A DNA stretch of 29,377 bases from an uncultured Thermoanaerobaculia bacterium (GCA_964245465.1 CAXTNS010000005.1:1-29377), one strand, 5' to 3'; numbered from the stretch's first letter, positions 9,743 to 26,279 are shown. Numbers and translations: made by a program. The notes: a model not told the origin generated them from the sequence alone.

Positions 9743-10582
9743 ATGTTCCAGCGCAAACGGACCGGCTCCATCCTCTGCCCGTCGTGCGGCAAGCTGGTCG
9801 GGGTCAACGACGACGTCTGTTGGAACTGCGGGCGCAAGAACCCCGGGATGTGGGGGCTCACCGCCGTCTTCCGCAAGCTCGGCCAAGACCTGGGATTCGT
9901 CCAGGTGGTCATCGTGGGCACGGCCTTCCTCTATATCGCCATGCTCGTGGTCGATCCCGAGGGCATCCGCATGGGCGGGCTCCTCTCGATCGGTATGCCC
10001 AGCCAGGAAAGCCTGTTGCGGTTCGGGGCGGCCGGCCGGTATCCCGTCTGGGCTTTCGGCCGCTGGTGGACGGTCCTCTCCGCGGGCTGGCTCCACGCGG
10101 GCCTGCTGCACATCGGATTCAACCTCTATTGGATCCGGCTCCTGGCACCCGAGGCGGCCGAGCTGTATGGTGCCGGGCGGATGGTCGTCATCTACACGGT
10201 CTCCTCGATCGTGGGCTTCTTCGTCAGCAGCTCGATCGGGCTGGTGCTGCCGTTCTTCAGTGGCGCGGGGCTCACGGTGGGAGCTTCGGCACCCATCCTG
10301 GGTCTGCTCGGGGCTCTCGTCCACTACGGGCGGCGCACCGGCAGTGGCACCTTGGGACGGCAGGCCTGGAGCTACGCTATCTTCATGATCGCCTTCGGGT
10401 TCCTGATGCGCGGCGTGGACAACTGGGCCCACCTCGGCGGCTTCGCGGGCGGCTATCTGGCCAGCCTGCTGGTCGATCCCCGGCGGCCGGAGCGGGGCAA
10501 CGACCTCGCCCTGGCGCTGATCTGCCTGGTGCTGACGGCGGCTTCGATCGTGGCGTCGCTGGTGGTCCCGGTGCCGGTGTAG
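9743..10582 (+). CDS. Rhomboid family intramembrane serine protease with N-terminal zinc ribbon
   Basis: CPSCG...CWNCG N-terminus, LHAGLLHIGFN, catalytic GAS (VGASAP) and AHLGG, multiple TM helices. Confidence 0.92.
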   Translation: MFQRKRTGSILCPSCGKLVGVNDDVCWNCGRKNPGMWGLTAVFRKLGQDLGFVQVVIVGTAFLYIAMLVVDPEGIRMGGLLSIGMPSQESLLRFGAAGRYPVWAFGRWWTVLSAGWLHAGLLHIGFNLYWIRLLAPEAAELYGAGRMVVIYTVSSIVGFFVSSSIGLVLPFFSGAGLTVGASAPILGLLGALVHYGRRTGSGTLGRQAWSYAIFMIAFGFLMRGVDNWAHLGGFAGGYLASLLVDPRRPERGNDLALALICLVLTAASIVASLVVPVPV

Positions 10583-16988: not shown

Positions 16989-17344
16989 AGCTCGTCGCCG
17001 ATGAAGGCGTCGATCGCCAGATCGTCGAATGTCTCCGTCGAGACGGACACGAGGTGATCTATGTTGCCGAGCTCGATCCGGGGATCGGGGACGACATGGT
17101 TCTGCAGTGGGCCGGCGAGAGCGGTGCTCTCCTCCTGACCGGCGACAAAGACTTCGGTGAGCTGGTGTTCCGTCAGAGGAAGGCAAGCAGGGGAGTGGTC
17201 TTGCTCCGGCTTGCTGGTTGGGCACCCGAAAGGAAGGCAGAGCTGGTCTCAGAATCCTTGCGCGAGCACGGGCGGGAGATGCAAGGTGCCTTCTCTGTGA
17301 TCTCCCCGACAGCTCTCCGGATCCGTCGTGAGCTACCCTTGTAG
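16985..17344 (+). CDS. DUF5615 PIN-like (VapC45-type) toxin
   Basis: MKLVADEGVD, LLTGDKDFGELVF, GVVLLRL. GTG start overlaps the DUF433 stop (GTGA). Confidence 0.88.
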   Translation: MKLVADEGVDRQIVECLRRDGHEVIYVAELDPGIGDDMVLQWAGESGALLLTGDKDFGELVFRQRKASRGVVLLRLAGWAPERKAELVSESLREHGREMQGAFSVISPTALRIRRELPL

Positions 17345-18037
17345 GGGTGGGGTCATCGAGGTGGTACCTACCAGCGGCTCCTCCTCCCGCCACGCCGCCT
17401 CACCGTCCGCGTAGTGCTCCCGCTTCCAGATGGGAATCTCCGCCTTGAGCCGCTCCAGGGCGGTGCGGCTCGCCTCGTAGGCGGCGGCGCGGTGGGGGGA
17501 GCCGACGGCGATCACCACGCTCGCTTCGCCCACGGGAACCTCCCCGAGACGGTGAACGATCGCCGCCCTCAGATCCTGGTGGGTGGCTTCGAGGTCAGCC
17601 ACGATCCGGCGCAACCCTTCCAGGGCCATGGGACGGTAGGCGCTGTAGGTGAGCTTCTCGACGGGACGGCCGGCGTGGTGATCCCGGACCGTGCCGAGGA
17701 AGACCACGACGGCGCCGCGGCCGGGACCGGAGACGGCGGCGACCGCTTGGCCCGTATCGATCGGCTCGTCTACAAGACCCACATGCGCCTCGATGCCTCC
17801 TGATACCGGGGGAAGCAGGGCCACTTCGACTCCGTCCTTGAGCTCGGCATCGGCGGATGCGATCCGGCCATTCAGGGCGATCGCCATCCGGGGCCAGAGG
17901 GGGATGAGGCCAGGATGGTCCCGATCGAGCCGCTCGCGGAGGTCGGCGACCCGGCTGCCGTCAGGGATCTCCAACTCCGTCTCGGTGGTGCCCAGGGCAT
18001 CTCCGGCGCTGGCGAAGGCGAGGAGGTGGATCTTCAT
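17333..18037 (-). CDS. moaE: MoaD-MoaE fusion molybdopterin synthase (MoaX-like)
   Basis: MKIHLLAFA...VALLPPVSGG (MoaD) followed by GAVVVFLGTVR, HRLG, HRAAAYEA, PIWKRE (MoaE). Start at ATG 18037. Confidence 0.9.
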   Translation of the reverse strand: MKIHLLAFASAGDALGTTETELEIPDGSRVADLRERLDRDHPGLIPLWPRMAIALNGRIASADAELKDGVEVALLPPVSGGIEAHVGLVDEPIDTGQAVAAVSGPGRGAVVVFLGTVRDHHAGRPVEKLTYSAYRPMALEGLRRIVADLEATHQDLRAAIVHRLGEVPVGEASVVIAVGSPHRAAAYEASRTALERLKAEIPIWKREHYADGEAAWREEEPLVGTTSMTPPLQG

Positions 18038-18303
18038 GCTCTCGAAACCAGGGGGTATTGCTCCGGGTGCTCGATCGACTCCACGGCGAGATCTACGTCC
18101 AAGTCGGGCCAGTAGAGATGATGCGGCTGGGGCCATTCAACGTTCAGAATGGCGGAAACAGAGGCATCCCGGAACCAGGGAAACCCCTCAAAGGAGAGGA
18201 ACAGCTCACGGTCTCCAAGGAGGAGCCAGAAGCCGTGCTGGGATATATGGGTGACCTCAATGTCCGAAGTGTTCTTGCCAAGCGCGCTTGATCTCATCTT
18301 CAT
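18034..18303 (-). CDS. DUF2442 family protein (antitoxin-like)
   Basis: EVTHISQHGFWLL...LSFEGFPWF...LYWPDLDVDL..ESI.HPE.YPL. Start may be 18297. The stop overlaps the moaD-moaE ATG. Confidence 0.85.
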   Translation of the reverse strand: MKMRSSALGKNTSDIEVTHISQHGFWLLLGDRELFLSFEGFPWFRDASVSAILNVEWPQPHHLYWPDLDVDLAVESIEHPEQYPLVSRA

Positions 18304-18496
18304 GCTCCCTGATCAGCCTTTCAACGGCTCGCAGGTCAGTAGACGTCAAACCGTAATTCTGCGCCAACTCGATCTCAGGCTCCATCCAGAACTTCGCCTC
18401 TCCATGTCCACAGTGGATGTGAACGTGCATCCGTGGTTCCTCACGCGAGAAAAAGAAGAACCGGTATCCCCTCTCTTGGAAGATTGTCGGGCTCAA
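18257..18496 (-). CDS. DUF4160 family protein (HicA-like toxin candidate)
   Basis: GYRFFFFSREEPRMHVH...EAKFW...EI..AW..HF. TTG start after AAGGAGG. Confidence 0.85.
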   Translation of the reverse strand: MSPTIFQERGYRFFFFSREEPRMHVHIHCGHGEAKFWMEPEIELAQNYGLTSTDLRAVERLIREHEDEIKRAWQEHFGH

Positions 18497-18560: not shown

Positions 18561-20225
18561 GTGGCGATCCTGGAGAGCAAGGTCAACCGGAACGATGCGT
18601 TCGAGCGCCAGGCGGAGCATTGGCGGCGGAAGGTCGAGGAGATCCGCGAGCAGGAGGACCGCATTCGCCTGGGTGGCGGCCTGAAGGCGCAGGACAAGCA
18701 GCGCGCCCAGGGCAAGATGACGGCCCGCGAGCGGGTCGAGGCGCTGTGCGATCCGGGAGCGCCGTTCCTGGAGCTGGGACTCTGGGTGGCCGAAGGGTTC
18801 TACCAGGAGTACGGCGGCGCGCCGGCGGCGGGGGTGGTCCTGGGAGTCGGCAGAATCCACGGCCGGGAGGTGGTGGTGGTGGCCAACGACGCCACGGTGA
18901 AGGCCGGCGCGTGGTTCCCGCTGACCTGCAAGAAGGTCCTGCGCGCCCAGGAGATCGCCCTCGAGAACCGGCTGCCCATCGTCTACCTGGTGGATTCGGC
19001 GGGCGTTTTCCTCCCCCTTCAGGACGAGATCTTCCCTGACCGGGAGCACTTCGGCCGGGCCTTTTACAACAACGCCCGGCTCTCGGCCGAGGGGGTGTTC
19101 CAGATGGCGGCCATCATGGGCTCGTGCGTGGCCGGCGGGGCCTATCTGCCGATCATGAGCGACGAGTCCCACATCGTGGAGGGCACGGGCTCCATCTTCC
19201 TCGCCGGTTCCCACCTGGTGCAGGCGGCCATCGGCGAGAAGATCGACAACGAGGAGCTGGGCGGCGCCCTCGTCCAGTGCGACGTCTCGGGCGTCGTGGA
19301 CCACCGCCATCCCAACGACGCCGCCTGCCTGGAGAAGATCCGCAGCCAGTTCGCCCAGATCGCCCGGGGAGAGCGGGCGCCCTTCGCCCGGCGTGATCCC
19401 GTCGAGCCGCTCTATCCGGCCGAGGACCTGTACGGCCTGATGCCCATCGACCGTTCCCGGCCCTACGACACCCACGAGATGCTCGCCCGGCTGCTCGACG
19501 GCAGCGAATTCGACGAGTACAAGGCCACCTACGGCCAGACCCTGGTCTGCGGCACGGGCTGGATCGAGGGGCAGGCGGTGGGGATCGTGGCCAACCAGCG
19601 CTCGATCGTCCCCAGGAAGACGGGCACCGGCGCGGGCGACCGTGAGCTTCAGATCGGCGGCGTCATCTACTCGGACTCGGCGGACAAGGGGGCGCGGTTC
19701 GTCGAGCTGTGCAACCAGAAGAAGATCCCCCTTCTCTTCCTGCAGGACGTGACCGGCTTCATGGTGGGCAGCCGCGCCGAGAGGGGCGGCATCATCAAGG
19801 ACGGCGCCAAGATGGTGAACGCCGTGGCCAACTCGACGGTGCCCAAGATCACTCTTTTCGTGGGCAACTCCTATGGCGCTGGCAACTACGCCATGTGCGG
19901 CAAGGCCTACGGCCCGCGCTTCGTCTACGCTTGGCCGTCGGCGTCCATCGCAGTAATGGGCGGTGACCAGGCGAGCCGAACGCTCCTCTCGATCCAGCTC
20001 AAGAACCGAGGCGCGGAGGTGTCGGAGGAAGAGAAGAAGCGGCGTCTGGACGAGATCAAGGCCCGCTACGCCGCCGCCATGGACCCCCGCTACGCCGCCG
20101 CCCGCCTCTGGGTGGACGCCATCATCGACCCGGCCGAGACCCGCGCGGTGATCGGGCGCTCGCTGGCCTGCGCGGCGATGAACCCGGAGATCCTGGATTT
20201 CAAGACTGGAGTGCTACAAACGTAG
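18561..20225 (+). CDS. Acyl-CoA carboxylase carboxyltransferase subunit (methylcrotonyl-CoA carboxylase beta-like)
   Basis: GKMTARER, ANDATVKAG, LVDSAG, CVAGGAY, EELGG, FLQDVTGFMVG, GAGNYAMCG, YAAARLWVDAIIDP. GGGAGG RBS before the GTG. Confidence 0.93.
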   Translation: MAILESKVNRNDAFERQAEHWRRKVEEIREQEDRIRLGGGLKAQDKQRAQGKMTARERVEALCDPGAPFLELGLWVAEGFYQEYGGAPAAGVVLGVGRIHGREVVVVANDATVKAGAWFPLTCKKVLRAQEIALENRLPIVYLVDSAGVFLPLQDEIFPDREHFGRAFYNNARLSAEGVFQMAAIMGSCVAGGAYLPIMSDESHIVEGTGSIFLAGSHLVQAAIGEKIDNEELGGALVQCDVSGVVDHRHPNDAACLEKIRSQFAQIARGERAPFARRDPVEPLYPAEDLYGLMPIDRSRPYDTHEMLARLLDGSEFDEYKATYGQTLVCGTGWIEGQAVGIVANQRSIVPRKTGTGAGDRELQIGGVIYSDSADKGARFVELCNQKKIPLLFLQDVTGFMVGSRAERGGIIKDGAKMVNAVANSTVPKITLFVGNSYGAGNYAMCGKAYGPRFVYAWPSASIAVMGGDQASRTLLSIQLKNRGAEVSEEEKKRRLDEIKARYAAAMDPRYAAARLWVDAIIDPAETRAVIGRSLACAAMNPEILDFKTGVLQT

Positions 20226-20292: not shown

Positions 20293-20889
20293 GTGAGCGA
20301 CGTTTCTCCAGGTGGCGTGACGCAGCTCCTGACCGATTGGCAGGCGGGCGACGATCGTGCGCTCGAGCGGCTCATGCCCCTGGTCTACGGCGAGTTGCGC
20401 CGGCTGGCCGGCCGGTATCTCAACCGCGAACGGGAAGGCCATACCTTAGAGACCCATGACCTGATCCACGAGGCCTTCCTGCGCCTCATCGACCAGCGTC
20501 AGGTGGACTGGCAGAGCCGGGCTCACTTCTTCGGCATCGCCGCCCAGATGATGCGGCGGATCCTGGTCGACCATGCCCGCCGCCGCGGCGCGCGCCGGCA
20601 CGGGGGCGACGTGCGCCAGCTCCTGGGGGATGAAGTGGCCGACGTGGCCGTGGATCGCGACGCAAGTCTTGTGGCTCTCGACGAGGCCCTCACCGAGCTC
20701 GCCCGGAGCGACGAGTCGCTCGCCCGTATCGTCGAGCTGCGCTTTTTCGGCGGCCTGGAGCATGACGAGATCGCCTCTCTCCTGGGAGTGTCCAATCCCA
20801 CCGTGAGGCGCCGCTGGCGCGTGGCCCGGGCCTGGCTCTACCGGCATCTGTCTGGCGGCGAGGCTGCTCCGGTGGCGGATGGCGACTGA
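20293..20889 (+). CDS. ECF-type sigma factor of the kinase-associated (TIGR02999-like) type
   Basis: VTQLL..W..GD..AL..L.PLVY.ELRRLA..YL, HEAFLRL, WQSRAHFFGIAAQMMRRILVDHAR, RFFGGL, W..ARAWL. GTG start at 20293. Confidence 0.9.
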   Translation: MSDVSPGGVTQLLTDWQAGDDRALERLMPLVYGELRRLAGRYLNREREGHTLETHDLIHEAFLRLIDQRQVDWQSRAHFFGIAAQMMRRILVDHARRRGARRHGGDVRQLLGDEVADVAVDRDASLVALDEALTELARSDESLARIVELRFFGGLEHDEIASLLGVSNPTVRRRWRVARAWLYRHLSGGEAAPVADGD

Positions 20890-23680
20890 CCGCTGGCGCC
20901 GGATCGAGGCGATCTTCGAGGAGGTCGAGGCGCTTTCCGGGGCCGAGCGGGAAGCGCGCCTCGCGGAGCTGTGCGGCGGCGACGAGCCGCTGCGGCGGGA
21001 GGTCCTCTCCTTGCTCGCCGCTGAAGAGGCGGCCGGCACCTTCCTGGACCGGCCGGCCGGGCAATCACCAGGCGCCACCGTCCTGCCGCCGTCCTCGGCC
21101 GTCGGGCAACGCCTCGGCCCCTACCGCGTGGAGCGCAAGCTCGGCGAGGGCGGCATGGCCTCGGTCTATCTGGCCGTGCGCGCCGACGAGGAGTACCGCC
21201 AGCAGGTCGCCATCAAGATCTTCGGCTATGGCGCGGACCGCTCGGACCTGCTCCATCGCTTCCGCGCCGAACGGCAGATCCTGGCCTCGCTCGACCACCC
21301 GAACATCGCCCGCCTCCTCGACGGCGGCACCACGGAAGACGGCCTTCCCTACCTGGTCATGGAATACATCGACGGCGTCCCCATCGACCGCTTCTGTGAG
21401 CAGAGCGGGTTGGGGATCGACGCCCGCATCGACCTCTTCCGCGAGGTTTGCGCGGCGGTCCAGTACGCGCACCAGAACCTGGTGGTCCACCGCGACATCA
21501 AGCCGTCCAACATCCTGGTGACTGCCGACGGCCGGCCCCACCTGCTCGACTTCGGCATCGCCAAGCTCCTGGAGGGCTCCAACCTGACGGAGGCCGCCGC
21601 CACCCTGACGGGGCAGCGGCTGATGACCCCGCACTACGCCAGCCCCGAGCAGGTGGCGGGCAGGCCGGTGACCACCTCGACCGACGTGTACGCCCTGGGC
21701 GTGCTGCTGTACGTCCTGCTGACCGGCCGCCTGCCCTACCGGCTGGAGGGGGACCGCATAGGAGCCGTCGAGCAGGCGGTGCTGGAGCAGGAGCCGGAGC
21801 GGCCGAGCACGGCTATTAGCTCCCTGTTCCCCGGAGATGACGGTCTGGGGACCACCACGGCGCGCGACCGTCGGCTGGCCCGCTGGCTGGCCGGCGATCT
21901 CGACAACATCGTGCTCATGGCTCTGCGCAAGGAGCCGCAGCGGCGCTATGCCTCGGTCGAGCTGCTGTCCGAAGACCTCCGGCGCTACCGGGAGGGTCTG
22001 ACCGTCCGCGCGCGGCCCGCGACCCTGGAGTACCGGGTGGCCAAGTTCGTGAGCCGCCACCGCCTGGGGGTCGGTCTCGCCGCTGGCTTCTTCCTCCTCG
22101 TCCTCGTCCTTGCCGTGGTGATGACCGTGCAGGCGGTGCGCCTGGCCCGCCAGCGGGATGAGATCCGCCGCGAGCGCGACAAGGCCGTGGAGGTGGCGCG
22201 CCTCCTGGAGGAGGTCTTCTCCAAGGCGGATCCCAGCGAGGCCCGGGGCGAGGAGGTCACCGCCCGCGAGGTGCTCGACAAGGGGGCGAGCCGGGTGATG
22301 GCCGAGATGAAGGGGCAGCCGGAGGTGCAGGCGGCGCTCGCGGCTACCATGGGCAAGGCCTATCAAGGCCTGGGGCTGAACGACAGCGCCCGCCCTCTGC
22401 TGGAGAGGTCGCTGGCGCTCCGGCGGCGGCTGTTTGGCGAGGAGCACCCGGCTGTGGCCGAGAGTCTGGAAGCCCTGGGAAACCTCGTCCAGATCCAGGG
22501 AGACCTGGACCGCGCCGAAGCTCTGCAGCGCCAGGGACTTCGCATCCGCCGCAAGCTCCTGGGCAATGACGATCCCGCCGTGGCCCTGAGCCTCAACGGG
22601 CTCGCCACGGTCCTCACCGCGAAGGCCCAGTACGACGAGGCCGAGCGGCTGCTGCGGGAGGCGCTCGCCATCAACCGACGCCACTACGGCAATGAGCACC
22701 AGGAGGTGGCGACGGACCTGGGCAACCTCGGCTACGTCGTCAAGCTGAAGGGAGACCTCGTGGCGGCCGAGGCCCTCTACAAAGAAACCTTAAGAGTCCT
22801 GCGAAAGCTGTTCGGGAATACCCACCCCATGATCGCCACTCAGCTCAACAACCTGGCCGTCCTGCAAGCCGAGCGCGGCGATCTGGTTGGCGCGGAGAAG
22901 AGCTATCGCGAATCGCTCGCCATCGCTCATCGCCTCTATGGCGAGGAGCATTCCGAGATCGCCCTTCAGCTCAACAACCTGGCGGTCGTGCTTACCCTGC
23001 GCAACGGCCCTGGTGATAGCGAGGAGGCCGAACGCCTGCTGCGCCAGTCCCTGGCCATGCGCCGGAAGCTGCTCGGCCCCGAGCACGAGCAGGTGGCCAT
23101 GGCGGTCAACAACCTGGCCAGGGTGCTCGAAGACCGGGGTGACCTGGCCGCGGCCCGGCCTCTCTACGAAGAGGCCCTGCGCATCTCCCGCAAGGCCTTC
23201 GGTGACAAACATCCGCGGGTCGCCTCCCAGCTCGTCAACCTGGCGAACCTCCTGGCCGCCCAAGGTGACCGGGCGGCGGCCGAGCCGCTGGCCCGCCAAG
23301 CCCTGGCGATTCGCCGCGAGGTGCTCGGCGAGAAGCACCCGGACGTCGGCGCCTCTCTGGTGGGGTTGGGCACCCTTCGTCTCGCCAGAGGCGCGCCCGC
23401 CGAGGCGGAGCCCCTCCTGAGGCAGGGTCTCGAAATCCTGCGCGCGGTGCTGCCGGCCGGCCATCCCCGGATTGCGGAAGGAGAAAGCCAACTCGGCGCT
23501 TGCCTGGAAGCCCGTGGCCGTGCGGCGGAGGCCGGACCACTCCTGGCCTCCGGCTACGAGGCCCTCGCCCGCGCCCGGGGGCCTGCCAATCCCAAGACGA
23601 TCGCCGCCTGCGAGCGGCTGAAAACCTTCCGGGCCGCCCACGGTGGAGGCCCGCCGGTCTCCTGCCACGCTCCCGCCTGA
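20879..23680 (+). CDS. Membrane Hanks-type Ser/Thr kinase with about 10 C-terminal TPRs
   Basis: GEGGMASVY, VAIK, HRDIKPSN, DFG, TPHYASPE, DVYALG. TM helix LGVGLAAGFFLLVLVLAVVMTV. Then ~42-aa repeats HP.VA..LNNLA. Start overlaps the ECF stop region. Confidence 0.95.
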   Translation: MATDRWRRIEAIFEEVEALSGAEREARLAELCGGDEPLRREVLSLLAAEEAAGTFLDRPAGQSPGATVLPPSSAVGQRLGPYRVERKLGEGGMASVYLAVRADEEYRQQVAIKIFGYGADRSDLLHRFRAERQILASLDHPNIARLLDGGTTEDGLPYLVMEYIDGVPIDRFCEQSGLGIDARIDLFREVCAAVQYAHQNLVVHRDIKPSNILVTADGRPHLLDFGIAKLLEGSNLTEAAATLTGQRLMTPHYASPEQVAGRPVTTSTDVYALGVLLYVLLTGRLPYRLEGDRIGAVEQAVLEQEPERPSTAISSLFPGDDGLGTTTARDRRLARWLAGDLDNIVLMALRKEPQRRYASVELLSEDLRRYREGLTVRARPATLEYRVAKFVSRHRLGVGLAAGFFLLVLVLAVVMTVQAVRLARQRDEIRRERDKAVEVARLLEEVFSKADPSEARGEEVTAREVLDKGASRVMAEMKGQPEVQAALAATMGKAYQGLGLNDSARPLLERSLALRRRLFGEEHPAVAESLEALGNLVQIQGDLDRAEALQRQGLRIRRKLLGNDDPAVALSLNGLATVLTAKAQYDEAERLLREALAINRRHYGNEHQEVATDLGNLGYVVKLKGDLVAAEALYKETLRVLRKLFGNTHPMIATQLNNLAVLQAERGDLVGAEKSYRESLAIAHRLYGEEHSEIALQLNNLAVVLTLRNGPGDSEEAERLLRQSLAMRRKLLGPEHEQVAMAVNNLARVLEDRGDLAAARPLYEEALRISRKAFGDKHPRVASQLVNLANLLAAQGDRAAAEPLARQALAIRREVLGEKHPDVGASLVGLGTLRLARGAPAEAEPLLRQGLEILRAVLPAGHPRIAEGESQLGACLEARGRAAEAGPLLASGYEALARARGPANPKTIAACERLKTFRAAHGGGPPVSCHAPA

Positions 23681-23741
23681 AAAATTCTTTTGGACCGCGT
23701 GATCGCTTTGGCCACCGCTTTACGCGTTAGGGAAGAACCCG

Positions 23742-23758
23742 GCTGCTCAACGAGCAGC
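23742..23758 (+). promoter_or_regulatory. Hairpin in the leader of the peptide array
   Basis: GCTGCTC-AAC-GAGCAGC, perfect 7-bp stem, 20 nt before the first peptide ATG. Confidence 0.45.
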
Positions 23759-23778
23759 GCAGCAAGAAGGAGACGGTC

Positions 23779-23829
23779 ATGAAAATCAAGGCGAACGTCA
23801 AGGCTGGCGGCATTCTCCTCAGCGACTAA
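23779..23829 (+). CDS. 16-aa peptide 1: MKIKANVKAGG-ILLSD
   Basis: AAGGAGA RBS, ATG..TAA, one of five paralogues with synonymous codon differences. Confidence 0.88.
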   Translation: MKIKANVKAGGILLSD

Positions 23830-23877
23830 GCTGAACGGAACCTCGCAGAAAAATCTTTGGAAATTCAGGAGTCAACC

Positions 23878-23928
23878 ATGAAGGTCAAGGCAAACGTAAA
23901 GGCCGGCGGTATCCTCGCCAGCGACTAA
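23878..23928 (+). CDS. 16-aa peptide 2: MKVKANVKAGG-ILASD
   Basis: CAGGAG RBS, ATG..TAA, paralogue. Confidence 0.88.
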   Translation: MKVKANVKAGGILASD

Positions 23929-23974
23929 GTTGGACTGAACCTCGAAGCAAACTCTGGAACTGAAGGAGTAAGCC

Positions 23975-24025
23975 ATGAAAGTCAAGGCGAACGTAAAGGC
24001 CGGCGGCATCATGATGTCGGATTAG
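23975..24025 (+). CDS. 16-aa peptide 3: MKVKANVKAGG-IMMSD
   Basis: AAGGAG RBS, ATG..TAG, paralogue. Confidence 0.88.
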   Translation: MKVKANVKAGGIMMSD

Positions 24026-24082
24026 GTATGTCTCCATGGAGACAGCCTGAATCATAGGAATGCAACACGAAAGGAGACAGTC

Positions 24083-24133
24083 ATGAAGATCAAGGCGAAC
24101 GTGAAGGCCGGCGGCCATTTGATGGGCGACTAA
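24083..24133 (+). CDS. 16-aa peptide 4: MKIKANVKAGG-HLMGD
   Basis: AAAGGAGA RBS, ATG..TAA, paralogue. Confidence 0.88.
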   Translation: MKIKANVKAGGHLMGD

Positions 24134-24169
24134 CCAATCTTGAGAAACTCTGAACTGAAGGAGAAGGAC

Positions 24170-24220
24170 ATGAAGATCAAGGCGAACGTGAAGGCCGGCG
24201 GCATCCTCCTCGGCGACTGA
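24170..24220 (+). CDS. 16-aa peptide 5: MKIKANVKAGG-ILLGD
   Basis: AAGGAGA RBS, ATG..TGA, paralogue. Confidence 0.88.
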   Translation: MKIKANVKAGGILLGD

Positions 24221-24287
24221 GAGCGTTGAGCACACCGGCCCCCGGCGGACCTCAGAATCCTTCCGCGGGGCTGGTCAAGCCTCCTCT

Positions 24288-24320
24288 CCGGCCTCACCCC
24301 TGGAGGCCGGTTGTTTTTTT
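24288..24320 (+). terminator. Rho-independent terminator closing the peptide array
   Basis: CCGGCCTC (24288-24295) / GAGGCCGG (24303-24310) 8-bp stem followed by TTGTTTTTTT. Confidence 0.8.
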
Positions 24321-24801
24321 ATCCCGTATCCCATCGCTTCAGGATCATCTGGATCTCGTCCCGGTGGGTGGTCTCGTCGCGGATCAGGTCGTCGAACTCG
24401 ACGGCCAAGCCGTAGTGGCCCAAGGATTCGGCCTGCTTGCGGCGCAGGACATAGCGCTGGATGGTCTCGATCTCGTCTTCCAACGCGTTTCGGAGCATCT
24501 CCTTGGAGTCCTTCGCCGACTTGACCCCGGCGGGGACCGTGGTGGGCGTGCCGCCCAAGGACACGATCTTGTCGGCCAGGATCTGGGCGTGGCCGAGCTC
24601 ATCGGGGATCTCGTTCTCGAAGAACTGGCGCAGTTCCATGCGCCACTGGCCCTGCACCTGGCTGGCGTAGGTGCGGTACAGGATTACCGCCGCATACTCG
24701 TGCGCGAGGTCCACGTTCAAACCTTCAAGGAACTGGTCGTGGGAGACCTGGGCATCGCTGCCGGTTCCCTCGTCATCCCTCTTCTTGCCATTCTTTGCCA
24801 T
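24319..24801 (-). CDS. Ferritin-like / bacterioferritin-family di-iron protein
   Basis: EYAAVILY, DELGHA, EIETIQRY, DETTHRD (ExxH pairs). AAAGGAG RBS. Confidence 0.88.
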   Translation of the reverse strand: MAKNGKKRDDEGTGSDAQVSHDQFLEGLNVDLAHEYAAVILYRTYASQVQGQWRMELRQFFENEIPDELGHAQILADKIVSLGGTPTTVPAGVKSAKDSKEMLRNALEDEIETIQRYVLRRKQAESLGHYGLAVEFDDLIRDETTHRDEIQMILKRWDTG

Positions 24802-24911: not shown

Positions 24912-26279
24912 ATGAAGACGATCCGGATTGGCAACGGCCAGGGGTTCTGGGGAGACAACGTCGACGCGCCCGTGGAGCTGCTGCGTGGCGGCCCCATCGA
25001 CTACATCGGCATGGACTATCTGGCCGAGGTGACGTTGTCGATCATGATGCGGCAAAAGCTGAAGAATCCGAAGCTCGGCTATGCCACGGACTTCATCGGT
25101 TTCATCCGCCGGGTGCTCCCCGAGCTCAAGGAGCGCAACGTGCGCGTGCTGACCAACGCCGGTGGTCTCAATCCGCGGGCGTGCCGCAACCGCATCTTCG
25201 AGGTGGCGCGGGAGTTGGGCGTCCAAGGTCTGCGGGTGGGCGTGGTCGAGGGGGACGACCTCCTGCCGCGCCTCAAAGAGCTGATCGATGCCGGGCATCC
25301 GTTGAAAAACATGGATACGGGCGAGCCGCTGGCGCCCATAGTCGATAGGGTGATGAGCGCCAACGCCTACCTGGGGGCCCGACCCGTGGTGGAGGCCCTC
25401 GCTCAGGGCGCCCACATCGTGCTCTGCGGCCGGATCACGGACACGGCCCTGGCGCTGGCGCCCATGATCCACGAGTTTGGCTGGAGCCTGGCGGACTGGA
25501 ACTGCATGGCCGCGGGCACCATCGCCGGCCACATCATCGAATGCGGCGCCCAGTGCACGGGCGGCAACTTCAGCCGCTTCTGGGAGGTGCCGGACCTCTG
25601 GAACGTCGGCTATCCCGTGGTCGAGGCGCGGGAGGACGGCACCTTCGTGGTCACCAAGCACGAGGGGACCGGGGGGATGGTGACGGTTGATACGATCTCC
25701 GAGCAACTCGTCTACGAGATGGGCGATCCCAAGGGCTACATCACGCCGGACGTGACGGCCGACTTCACCTCTATCCGCGTGCGCCAGGACGGCAAGGACC
25801 GGGTGGAGGTCTCGGGGATCGAGGGTCGGCCCAACACGCCGTTCCTCAAGGTCTCGGCCTCCTACCTCGCCGGCTACAAGGCCTCGGGACAGATCACGCT
25901 CTCAGGGCCGCGGGCGGTGGAGAAGGCGGAGCTGGCGGCTGACATCGTCTGGAAACGGCTGGAGCGGGCAGGCGTCGTCTTCGCGCCCGAAGACCGCCAG
26001 ACGGAGCTCCTCGGCACGGGCGCCTGCCTGCCAGGGGTCTTCGACGCGCCGGAGGATCTGCCCGAGGTCGTGCTGCGGCTCGGCGTACGGCATCTGGAGG
26101 CCGCCAAGGTGGAACGGTTCGGCAAGGAGATCGCGCCGCTCGTGACCGCCGGCCCGCCGGGGGTGACGGGCTTTGCGGGCGGCCGGCCCAAGCCGCAGGA
26201 GATCGTGGCCTACTGGCCGGCGCTCCTGGCCCGCGAAGAGGTCGAGAGCCGCATCGGGGTCAACGTGGAGGAGGTGTGA
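24912..26279 (+). CDS. Acyclic terpene utilization AtuA family protein (DUF1446), N-terminal part
   Basis: IRIGNGQGFWGD, DYLAEVT, NAGGLNP, ANAYLGA, GRITD, AGHIIECGAQCTGGN, EQLVYE. Confidence 0.88.
   Translation: MKTIRIGNGQGFWGDNVDAPVELLRGGPIDYIGMDYLAEVTLSIMMRQKLKNPKLGYATDFIGFIRRVLPELKERNVRVLTNAGGLNPRACRNRIFEVARELGVQGLRVGVVEGDDLLPRLKELIDAGHPLKNMDTGEPLAPIVDRVMSANAYLGARPVVEALAQGAHIVLCGRITDTALALAPMIHEFGWSLADWNCMAAGTIAGHIIECGAQCTGGNFSRFWEVPDLWNVGYPVVEAREDGTFVVTKHEGTGGMVTVDTISEQLVYEMGDPKGYITPDVTADFTSIRVRQDGKDRVEVSGIEGRPNTPFLKVSASYLAGYKASGQITLSGPRAVEKAELAADIVWKRLERAGVVFAPEDRQTELLGTGACLPGVFDAPEDLPEVVLRLGVRHLEAAKVERFGKEIAPLVTAGPPGVTGFAGGRPKPQEIVAYWPALLAREEVESRIGVNVEEV

Follow-up and report, generated by a model that had tools for sequence, protein, structure and literature searches.

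A soil acidobacterium carries an ECF43-type sigma factor and a membrane receptor kinase that probably switch on five very small genes for putatively exported peptides, which belong to an undescribed and widespread family. Both the control of the peptide genes by the sigma factor and the export of the peptides are well supported by comparative genomics, although they remain inferences. Whether the kinase senses these same peptides, which would make this a peptide quorum circuit in a Gram-negative bacterium, remains a hypothesis.

Architecture of the locus

The analysed window is a stretch of 29,377 nucleotides from an uncultured Thermoanaerobaculia bacterium (GCA_964245465.1 CAXTNS010000005.1:1-29377), and the features of the locus are collected in Table 1. 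An earlier note, made from the sequence alone, had described an ECF sigma gene overlapping a kinase with intact catalytic motifs, one transmembrane (TM) helix and about 10 TPRs, followed by a peptide array that ends in a terminator, with no modifying enzyme or transporter adjacent. Our analysis confirmed each of these observations.

Table 1. Features of the sigma factor, kinase and peptide locus (positions in the window).
Feature	Position	Strand	Description
ECF43-type sigma factor	20293..20889	+	PF07638/TIGR02999; ORF open from TTG 20278; GTG 20293, preceded by GGAAGG, is the likelier start
Hanks-type receptor Ser/Thr kinase	20879..23680	+	933 aa; 80-aa N-terminal extension; kinase domain (nt 21122-21964); one TM helix (about nt 22058-22132); ten TPR_10/12 repeats (about nt 22319-23580); start overlaps the sigma stop by 11 nt
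Promoter-like element	23680..23731	+	A/T-rich tract (23680-23691), -35-like GTGATCGCTTT (23699-23709), -10-like CGCGTTAGG (23723-23731)
Hairpin in the presumed 5' leader	23742..23758	+	7 bp; followed by the ribosome-binding site AAGGAG (23767-23772)
Peptide gene 1	23779..23829	+	KAGG leader plus ILLSD
Peptide gene 2	23878..23928	+	KAGG leader plus ILASD
Peptide gene 3	23975..24025	+	KAGG leader plus IMMSD
Peptide gene 4	24083..24133	+	KAGG leader plus HLMGD
Peptide gene 5	24170..24220	+	KAGG leader plus ILLGD
Intrinsic terminator	24288..24320	+	8-bp GC-rich stem (stem 24288-24310) plus a T-run

In profile searches the sigma factor matched PF07638 (E 4.5e-58) and TIGR02999 (217.5 bits against a cut-off of 126). 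It is co-encoded with the kinase, and no anti-sigma-like ORF was found between or beside the two genes. The Pkinase domain of the kinase spans residues 82-362, and the catalytic residues K113, HRD 204-206, N211, DFG 224-226 and PE 256-257 were invariant in an alignment of 18 sequences. We identified a single hydrophobic segment at residues 394-412/418, followed by ten 42-residue TPR_10/TPR_12 repeats that start at residues 481-862. The predicted location of the TPR domain outside the cytoplasmic membrane follows only from the kinase needing to be inside, as the charges flanking the hydrophobic segment are uninformative.

The five 51-nt ORFs behind the kinase gene each have an AGGAG-type ribosome-binding site and encode 16-residue peptides, in which MK[IV]KANVKAGG is followed by five variable residues. 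The gap from the kinase stop to the first ATG is 98 nt, and no terminator separates the kinase from the array. In the leader, five of the six variable sites are third codon positions, with 26 synonymous against six non-synonymous pairwise codon differences, whereas the core shows 12 against 22, so the ORFs are under selection as protein. The leader motif is far beyond chance; a reversed-pattern control gave no hits in every genome searched. The flanking genes are a carboxyltransferase, a ferritin-like gene and AtuA; no modifying enzyme or transporter is adjacent.

A promoter-like element that tracks the sigma lineage

Orthologous sigma/kinase pairs (clade A, sigma at least 73% identical) occur in five species, all of which have one to five KAGG peptide genes directly behind the kinase, in at least three different flanking contexts. 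In all five species a bipartite element, GTGATCGCTTT-N13-CGCGTTA(G/A), lies between the kinase and the peptide genes, with fixed spacing and a variable spacer. In the window it reads GTGATCGCTTT-N13-CGCGTTAGG, and it occurs once in the 7.1-Mb genome; the sigma appears to have a single target. The element is absent from six peptide arrays in the genus that lack the sigma/kinase and from nine paralogous sigma/kinase loci. No sigma-70-like site was found between the kinase and the array, whereas the sigma operon itself is preceded by sigma-70-like TAAT boxes and not by the motif. A sister clade (clade B, sigma about 62% identical) keeps the same element, again with fixed spacing and a variable spacer, behind its kinase in four of five species, and clades A and B share a distinctive region 4.2 (NPTVRR.WR). 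Thus, the element travels with the sigma lineage, as a cognate promoter would. Other ECF43/kinase pairs sit immediately next to family members in Blastocatellia, Pyrinomonadaceae and Bryobacterales, with a similar A-tract and -10-like element.

We also considered that the array is expressed by read-through or from an unrelated promoter, and that the sigma/kinase pair regulates something else. ECF43/kinase pairs are very numerous in these genomes (about 100-190 first-look kinase candidates per genome), most arrays of the family lack them, and the absence of a terminator behind the kinase would allow read-through. Furthermore, none of 65 ECF43 relatives of the Pyrinomonadaceae peptide-linked sigma has such a peptide nearby, indicating that the link is confined to narrow sub-lineages. 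The promoter assignment is purely comparative, since only soil DNA runs hold the region. However, all five orthologous loci keep the adjacency despite different flanks, the intergenic motif is conserved, unique in the genome and specific to the sigma lineage, and immediate adjacency recurs in several other ECF43 lineages. We consider coincidental adjacency or mere co-transcription unlikely.

The sigma factor departs from characterised ECF43 members at the site of phosphorylation. In these, region 2.2 lacks the acidic DAED motif and carries QTTA, the second Thr of which is phosphorylated (PMC8999054, PMC13147305). Clade A reads E-T-H-D and clade B reads E-T-R/A/H-D at this position, whereas paralogues keep QATA or QTSA. 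The canonical acceptor position is His in the sigma factor of the window, and acidic residues stand at positions 1 and 4. Based on this, activation by direct phosphorylation at the canonical site cannot simply be assumed, and control by phosphorylation may differ from that of EcfP or EcfK.

An undescribed peptide family linked to a C39-peptidase exporter

The peptides belong to a large family spread over Acidobacteriota, Planctomycetota, Proteobacteria and others, for which we found no Pfam or NCBIfam model, source name or paper. Its recurrent neighbours are a HlyD / C39-peptidase ABC / second ABC exporter and TPR or kinase-TPR proteins; no modifying enzyme recurs among 266 neighbouring ORFs in 79 loci. 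Among 101 loci with a family member, 20-26 hold C39, PCAT, ABC2 or HlyD genes within 8 kb. One such locus, L030, reads HlyD, C39-ABC (PF03412 plus ABC_tran), ABC and then peptides, whereas L161, a locus in one relative, reads PCAT, ABC2, sigma, kinase and four peptides, all on one strand. The C39 domain has an intact catalytic Cys (DCGPA motif) and is 55-79% identical across phyla, against 36-68% for the rest of the transporter, which matches the near-invariant leader. All five clade-A genomes have the PCAT orthologue. In the genome analysed here the exporter lies on another contig (C216), where the N-terminal C39 part is cut off by the contig end.

The leader is conserved up to Gly-Gly and the tails, of 5-7 residues across the family, are hypervariable, as expected of double-glycine-leader peptides. 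However, canonical double-glycine leaders have about 15-30 residues and are hydrophobic at -4, -7, -12 and -15, and the 11-residue Lys-rich leader, with Lys at -4, -8 and -10, does not fit this consensus. This departure, the distance between array and exporter in this genome and the apparently cytoplasmic nature of stand-alone TPR partners (below) would be compatible with 16-mers that are neither cleaved nor exported in this organism and act inside the cell as whole mini-proteins, for example as ligands of TPR proteins. Given the tight linkage of the family to a C39 transporter conserved more strongly in its peptidase than in the rest of the pump, the strong variation of the tails behind an invariant leader, and the presence of the exporter orthologue in every clade-A genome, we regard this possibility as very unlikely.

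We favour, with moderate confidence, a three-part regulatory module. In this view, the ECF43-family sigma factor and its translationally coupled receptor kinase form the sensor and regulator, with a cytoplasmic kinase, one TM helix and a TPR_10/12 solenoid outside the cytoplasmic membrane. The sigma factor would read one dedicated promoter placed directly behind the kinase gene, and this promoter would drive the five minigenes. The peptides would be handed to the dedicated exporter, which most likely cuts after Gly-Gly and releases unmodified 5-residue hydrophobic peptides ending in Asp. Sequence and comparative genomics establish the parts themselves, the selection on the peptide leader, the promoter conservation that tracks the sigma lineage and the linkage to the exporter, whereas we infer that this sigma reads this promoter, that the kinase controls the sigma, and that cleavage and export occur.

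The TPR domain as a candidate peptide sensor and comparison with known systems

The earlier note proposed a closed loop, in which exported peptides bind the extracytoplasmic TPR solenoid, the kinase phosphorylates the sigma factor, and the sigma transcribes more peptide. This interpretation is partly supported: the sigma-to-peptide and export arms find support, whereas binding of the peptides to the TPR domain, and therefore the closed loop, is not supported, though not refuted. In such a loop the exported 5-mers would re-enter the periplasm and bind the concave groove of the solenoid. In its favour, exporter, sigma, kinase and peptides form one cluster in L161 and in a further locus, L137, which is the layout of the com/blp-type pheromone loci (PMC7595303). 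TPR proteins recur beside the peptide family in two forms, kinase-fused ones and a stand-alone 390-410-aa TPR_10/12 family that is 40-70% identical across four phyla; for four of five of these stand-alone proteins the best match in this genome is the TPR domain of this kinase. The short tails and the lack of a recurrent modifying enzyme look more like signals than like bacteriocins, and the apparent single target of the sigma would also suit such a loop. KLC-type and carboxylate-clamp TPRs bind short acidic or C-terminal-Asp peptides.

Other observations weigh against the loop. Sister clade B has the same sensor architecture and promoter but drives unrelated secreted proteins, in genomes where no such peptides were found and, in four of five, no exporter. 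Peptide-bearing genomes exist without this sigma/kinase, and homologous arrays occur without any sigma/kinase locus, including one in this same genome, a condition that the earlier note had named as one that would refute the model. Prediction of the complex gave no signal, with a score of 0.02 against a mark of 0.32, which counts neither for nor against binding. Putative groove-facing helix-A positions (6, 7, 13, 16 and 17, by our own assignment) are identical in all five clade-A species in only one to three of the ten repeats, although the peptide cores are alike across those species. The stand-alone TPR relatives have no signal peptide or TM helix and should act in the cytoplasm, and five cores per array is unlike typical single pheromones. 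We therefore regard the peptides as one candidate ligand only and the closed loop as a tentative and rather unlikely model.

The pairing of a sigma factor with a TPR receptor kinase is itself already described, in EcfK/PknS of Xanthomonas citri (PMC13147305). This system and EcfP/PknT of Vibrio parahaemolyticus (PMC8999054) likewise feature an ECF43-type sigma (PF07638) without an anti-sigma factor, co-encoded with a transmembrane Hanks kinase that has a roughly 80-residue N-terminal extension, and the kinase PknS carries TPRs as well, which are periplasmic there. Here, the inferred output is an array of exported mini-peptides rather than a T6SS or a polymyxin-resistance regulon, the TPR domain is far larger (10 repeats against 3), sigma 2.2 reads ETHD instead of QTTA, and the putative target promoter sits directly behind the kinase gene.

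The ComC/ComAB/ComDE and BlpC/BlpAB/BlpRH pheromone circuits of streptococci (PMC7595303, PMC7018657) also combine small Gly-Gly-leader peptides, a C39-peptidase ABC exporter with an accessory protein, and a dedicated membrane sensor plus transcription factor in the same cluster, as seen in L161 and L137. The present system differs in that the sensor is a Ser/Thr kinase with an ECF sigma rather than a histidine kinase with a response regulator, the host is a diderm, the leader departs from the consensus, the products would be only 5-7 residues long, and sensing of the peptide is hypothetical. The NHLP/Nif11 precursor families share one conserved Gly-Gly leader with variable cores, and their three-gene NHLM exporter (TIGR03794/03796/03797) has the same three parts. 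However, the exporter analysed here scores far below the TIGR03796/TIGR03797 cut-offs (162.9 against 853.3 bits and 147 against 709.4 bits), the leader is unrelated and very short, and no maturase recurs.

In the model of MibX/MibW feed-forward control of microbisporicin (summarised in PMC4203916), an exported ribosomal peptide activates an ECF sigma that raises production; there the switch is an anti-sigma factor and the peptide is a lantibiotic made in an actinomycete, whereas here no anti-sigma factor is present and a kinase takes its place. RRNPP receptors (Rap, Rgg, NprR, PlcR, PrgX) have TPR-type domains that bind 5-8-residue, often hydrophobic, peptides. These receptors are cytoplasmic, with the TPR fused to an HTH or phosphatase domain, their peptides are Sec- or PptAB-exported and re-imported by Opp, and they involve no kinase and no sigma factor, whereas the TPR domain described here follows a TM helix behind a kinase and no HTH domain was found.

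Composition of the sigma/kinase/peptide locus

The genome to which the window belongs (contig C5, bases 1-29377) is 7.1 Mb in size and 92.6% complete, and relatives that share its loci are labelled Thermoanaerobaculia (Acidobacteriota) MAGs. In the window, the ORF for an ECF sigma overlaps by 11 nt the ORF for a Hanks kinase. All catalytic motifs of the kinase are invariant in an 18-sequence alignment. After a gap of 98 nt the kinase gene is followed by five 51-nt ORFs, each preceded by an AGGAG-type ribosome-binding site. These ORFs encode MK[IV]KANVKAGG followed by ILLSD, ILASD, IMMSD, HLMGD or ILLGD, and a terminator follows the array. Of the six variable sites in the leader, five are third codon positions; the ORFs are therefore constrained as protein. 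The earlier note had described the sigma gene, the TPR-bearing kinase, the peptide array and the terminator, and this observation was confirmed in every detail. The module is inserted between an acyl-CoA carboxyltransferase gene and an AtuA-family gene both here and in the genome of the relative G016, and an AtuA gene also lies about 3 kb from the peptide/kinase locus in a Blastocatellales MAG (locus L109). A ferritin-like/rubrerythrin-like gene convergent to the array is absent from the syntenic locus of G016 and is thus probably not part of the module. The coordinates of these and other features are collected in the table.

Features of the window and of related loci. Handles beginning with G denote genomes, with C contigs and with L loci; domain positions within the kinase are residue numbers.
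Location	Coordinates	Strand	Feature
Window	17333-18136	-	Single ORF with ThiS/MoaD-like and MoaE domains, apparently a fusion of the two molybdopterin synthase subunits
Window	18034-18496	-	Adjacent small genes with DUF2442 and DUF4160 domains, a pairing that may be a toxin-antitoxin-like module
Window	18561-20225 and 24912-26279		Acyl-CoA carboxyltransferase gene and AtuA-family gene
Window	20278/20293-20889		ECF sigma of the PF07638/TIGR02999 type
Window	20879-23680		Hanks kinase, 933 aa: 80-residue N-terminal extension, Pkinase domain (82-362), one hydrophobic segment (394-412), then ten 42-residue TPR_10/TPR_12 repeats
Window	24288-24320		Terminator
Window	24319-24801	-	Ferritin-like/rubrerythrin-like gene
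C237 of this genome (G000), locus L036	6333-6389, 6427-6483, 7497-7553		Second array: three 18-residue KAGG peptides with tails ending in TGAD
L035 (G009)	9938-9994		Single peptide gene
L083	1633-2862		Stand-alone TPR_10/12 protein
L057	5995-7188		Stand-alone TPR_10/12 protein
L112	826-1977		Stand-alone TPR_10/12 protein
L047	1-1185		Stand-alone TPR_10/12 protein
L065	788-1963		Stand-alone TPR_10/12 protein

The KAGG-leader peptide family and its genomic neighbours

A codon-degenerate pattern for the leader identified seven copies in this genome, and the pattern without the start codon identified an eighth copy with a GTG start. Three of the eight form the second array on contig C237, which lies just upstream of a PotA-like ABC ATPase and has no sigma or kinase nearby. 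The same arrangement occurs in G016 (L032) and in G018 (L030), and the arrays are followed by a palindromic CCGGATCCGG-type hairpin. The pattern also identified members in 7 of 40 other genomes of the genus and in at least 118 stretches of a collection with one genome per species. Real short ORFs with this leader occur in Thermoanaerobaculia, Blastocatellia, Pyrinomonadaceae, Bryobacterales, Holophagales-labelled MAGs, Pirellulaceae, Gemmatimonadaceae, Chloroflexota, Myxococcota and Gammaproteobacteria, the last including the cultured Methylomicrobium lacus. The tails comprise 2-10 residues in most members and are lineage-specific, as exemplified by h-h-h-[SG]-D and I-T-h-[TS]-G-A-D in this genus, x-x-W-x-x in many others, and multi-unit NHNQT chains in Blastocatellia. 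Long family members (L047, L090, L109, L112, L130 and L137) are chains of leader-like KVK..KAG(G) units that alternate with short variable stretches and an NHNQT motif, like polyproteins of repeated leader/core units. At L035, the reading frame about 70 nt upstream of the single peptide gene ends abruptly within an ABC-exporter NBD-like sequence, which looks like a truncated remnant of the gene for the second ABC protein of the exporter (ABC2) beside a surviving peptide gene.

We found no Pfam or NCBIfam model for this family, including when nine longer family members were searched against both. All of the 120 homologues listed out of 220 are unnamed or annotated as hypothetical protein, and literature searches for KAGG leader peptides and for the NHNQT motif found no relevant paper, although absence from the libraries searched is not proof of novelty. 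The minigenes here are 16-20 codons long and fell below the cutoff of the ORF track used for the earlier note. They form a large family with a dedicated exporter across several phyla.

Among 266 neighbouring ORFs from 79 loci, only a few families recur: exporter ABC proteins (21 loci), a kinase/TPR cluster (15 loci), HlyD (13 loci), ECF sigmas, and three small lineage-restricted groups and a cluster of further KAGG-type ORFs, at three loci each. The possibility that the peptides are RiPP precursors was rejected because no radical-SAM, YcaO, lanthionine or other maturase recurs among these ORFs; a radical SAM gene, a glycosyltransferase and an FGE-like gene each appear near a single locus only. 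The exporter consists of HlyD, a C39-peptidase ABC and a second ABC, and is complete in relatives such as those with loci L030 and L097. It resembles the NHLM three-gene system in layout but scores far below its cut-offs. Its C39 domain keeps the DCGPA catalytic Cys and is consistently more conserved across phyla (55-79% identity) than the rest of the pump (36-68%), which fits a protease matched to a near-invariant leader. This genome has the orthologues on contig C216, without peptides beside them. Based on this context, cleavage after Gly-Gly and export are well supported as inferences and we consider them likely, although the 11-residue Lys-rich leader is not a canonical GG leader.

The promoter-like element and the sigma/kinase lineage

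Within the genus, the kinase has many paralogues at 40-54% identity, and its close relatives split into two clades. Clade A members are 68-72% identical within the genus and about 75% identical in two further MAGs from the species collection, whereas clade B members are 58-60% identical. All five clade-A species, namely the window genome, G016, G004, G065 and G067, have 1-5 KAGG peptide genes directly behind the kinase, in at least three different flanking contexts. In G067 the order on one strand is PCAT, ABC2, sigma, kinase and four peptides.

Between the kinase stop and the first peptide lies GTGATCGCTTT-N13-CGCGTTA(G/A), preceded by an A-tract, with fixed spacing and a variable spacer. This element occurs exactly once in the genome and is absent from the six arrays of the genus that lack the sigma/kinase as well as from nine paralogous sigma/kinase loci. 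Autoregulation of the sigma operon was rejected, since the element is also absent upstream of the sigma gene itself, where sigma-70-like TAAT boxes sit instead. Clades A and B share a distinctive region 4.2. At one edge case (L084), a partly similar motif stands in front of a longer protein with a KAGG-like start, with no sigma or kinase within 8 kb. We read the element as the cognate promoter of this sigma lineage and the peptide array as its only recognisable target in this genome. The conservation and distribution of the element are observed directly in the sequences, whereas its use by this sigma, the control of the sigma by the kinase, and the cleavage and export of the peptides are inferred by comparison; a search of sequencing runs returned only soil metagenome DNA runs, holding about 5% of the words of the region, and no RNA run. 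Based on this comparative evidence, we consider it probable that the sigma drives the array, slightly more so than that the peptides are cleaved and exported.

The sigma itself departs from characterised ECF43 members. These lack the acidic DAED motif of region 2.2 and carry QTTA, whose second Thr is phosphorylated (PMC8999054; PMC13147305). Here the motif is ETHD, so that the acceptor position is His and two acidic residues are back. Clade B has ETRD, ETAD or ETHD, whereas paralogues keep QATA or QTSA. Kinase control is still likely from the conserved translational coupling, but the site and logic may differ, involving for example the first Thr or the linker sites described for EcfK.

Evidence bearing on peptide sensing and comparison with known systems

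The earlier note had proposed a closed loop in which exported peptides bind the extracytoplasmic TPR solenoid, the kinase phosphorylates the sigma and the sigma transcribes more peptide. This interpretation was only partly supported, as the evidence favours transcription of the array by the sigma and peptide export but leaves sensing of the peptides unproven. Clade B keeps the same element behind its kinase in four of five species (L155-L158), where it precedes genes for unrelated signal-peptide proteins: a small secreted protein, a Cys-rich protein and an NHL-repeat-like protein. No KAGG peptide was found in those genomes, and four of five lack the exporter orthologue. The sensor module thus works without these peptides in its nearest relatives, and the same element in front of unrelated genes suggests a fixed sigma/kinase/promoter cassette with swappable cargo. 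Genomes with peptides and exporter but without a clade-A sigma/kinase also exist, and arrays independent of ECF/kinase loci occur even in this genome, an outcome that the earlier note had named as one that would refute its model. A general link between ECF43 and these peptides was rejected, because 0 of 65 ECF43 relatives of the Pyrinomonadaceae peptide-linked sigma have a peptide within 5 kb. Complex prediction of the TPR domain (residues 440-933, 18-row alignment) with the 16-residue peptide 1 gave an ipSAE of 0.02, a score that according to the method is no evidence either way. The positions that we take to face the TPR groove are identical in all five clade-A species in only 1-3 of the 10 repeats. 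A comparison of clades A and B for specificity-determining groove residues showed no enrichment, with conservation following the structural TPR consensus only.

Other observations keep the loop possible. ECF43/kinase pairs lie immediately beside family members in several other lineages (L040, L050, L088, L109, L122, L130 and L137), with a similar A-tract and -10-like element, and L137 again combines sigma, kinase, peptides, HlyD and PCAT. In addition, a family of stand-alone TPR_10/12 proteins of 390-410 aa is embedded in operons that read peptide, HlyD, C39-ABC, ABC. Its members are 40-70% identical across four phyla, in Gammaproteobacteria, Pyrinomonadaceae, Blastocatellia and Verrucomicrobiota, and for four of its five members the best match in this genome is the TPR domain of this kinase. 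One stand-alone TPR protein comes from the cultured Methylomicrobium lacus. However, these proteins have no signal peptide or TM helix and should therefore meet the precursor in the cytoplasm, which points to an escort or leader-binding role as much as to a receptor. Taken together, we consider it doubtful on present evidence that the kinase senses the peptides.

In the furthest-reaching hypothesis compatible with these data, which we regard as unlikely, KAGG-leader peptides would be a widespread class of unmodified 5-7-residue extracellular signals in Gram-negative soil bacteria, sensed directly in several acidobacterial lineages by the periplasmic TPR solenoid of a Hanks kinase that activates an ECF sigma. 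This would be a peptide quorum-sensing pathway built from a Ser/Thr kinase and a sigma factor instead of a two-component system. Peptide-based cell-to-cell signalling is textbook for Gram-positive bacteria and rare in Gram-negatives. Few ECF43/kinase pairs have a known output, and this locus supplies a single, sharply defined candidate promoter and target, which makes the sigma, kinase and promoter triple directly testable in a heterologous host. It also gives a concrete ligand candidate for a TPR sensor inferred to be periplasmic, a type whose signals are unknown even for PknS. If the loop is not closed, the locus would still show how abundant sigma/kinase modules in Acidobacteria carry swappable cargo behind a fixed promoter.

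The architecture of a sigma plus a TPR receptor kinase is already known from EcfK/PknS, in which PknS is a TM kinase with an N-terminal extension and periplasmic TPRs (PMC13147305). Loci for GG peptides with a PCAT exporter and a dedicated sensor are known from streptococci (PMC7595303), and a proposed route from an exported peptide to an ECF sigma is known from microbisporicin (PMC4203916). In comparison with these systems, what is new here is the peptide family and its exporter, the inferred use of a Ser/Thr kinase and an ECF sigma as the regulator of such peptides, and a clean single-promoter design.
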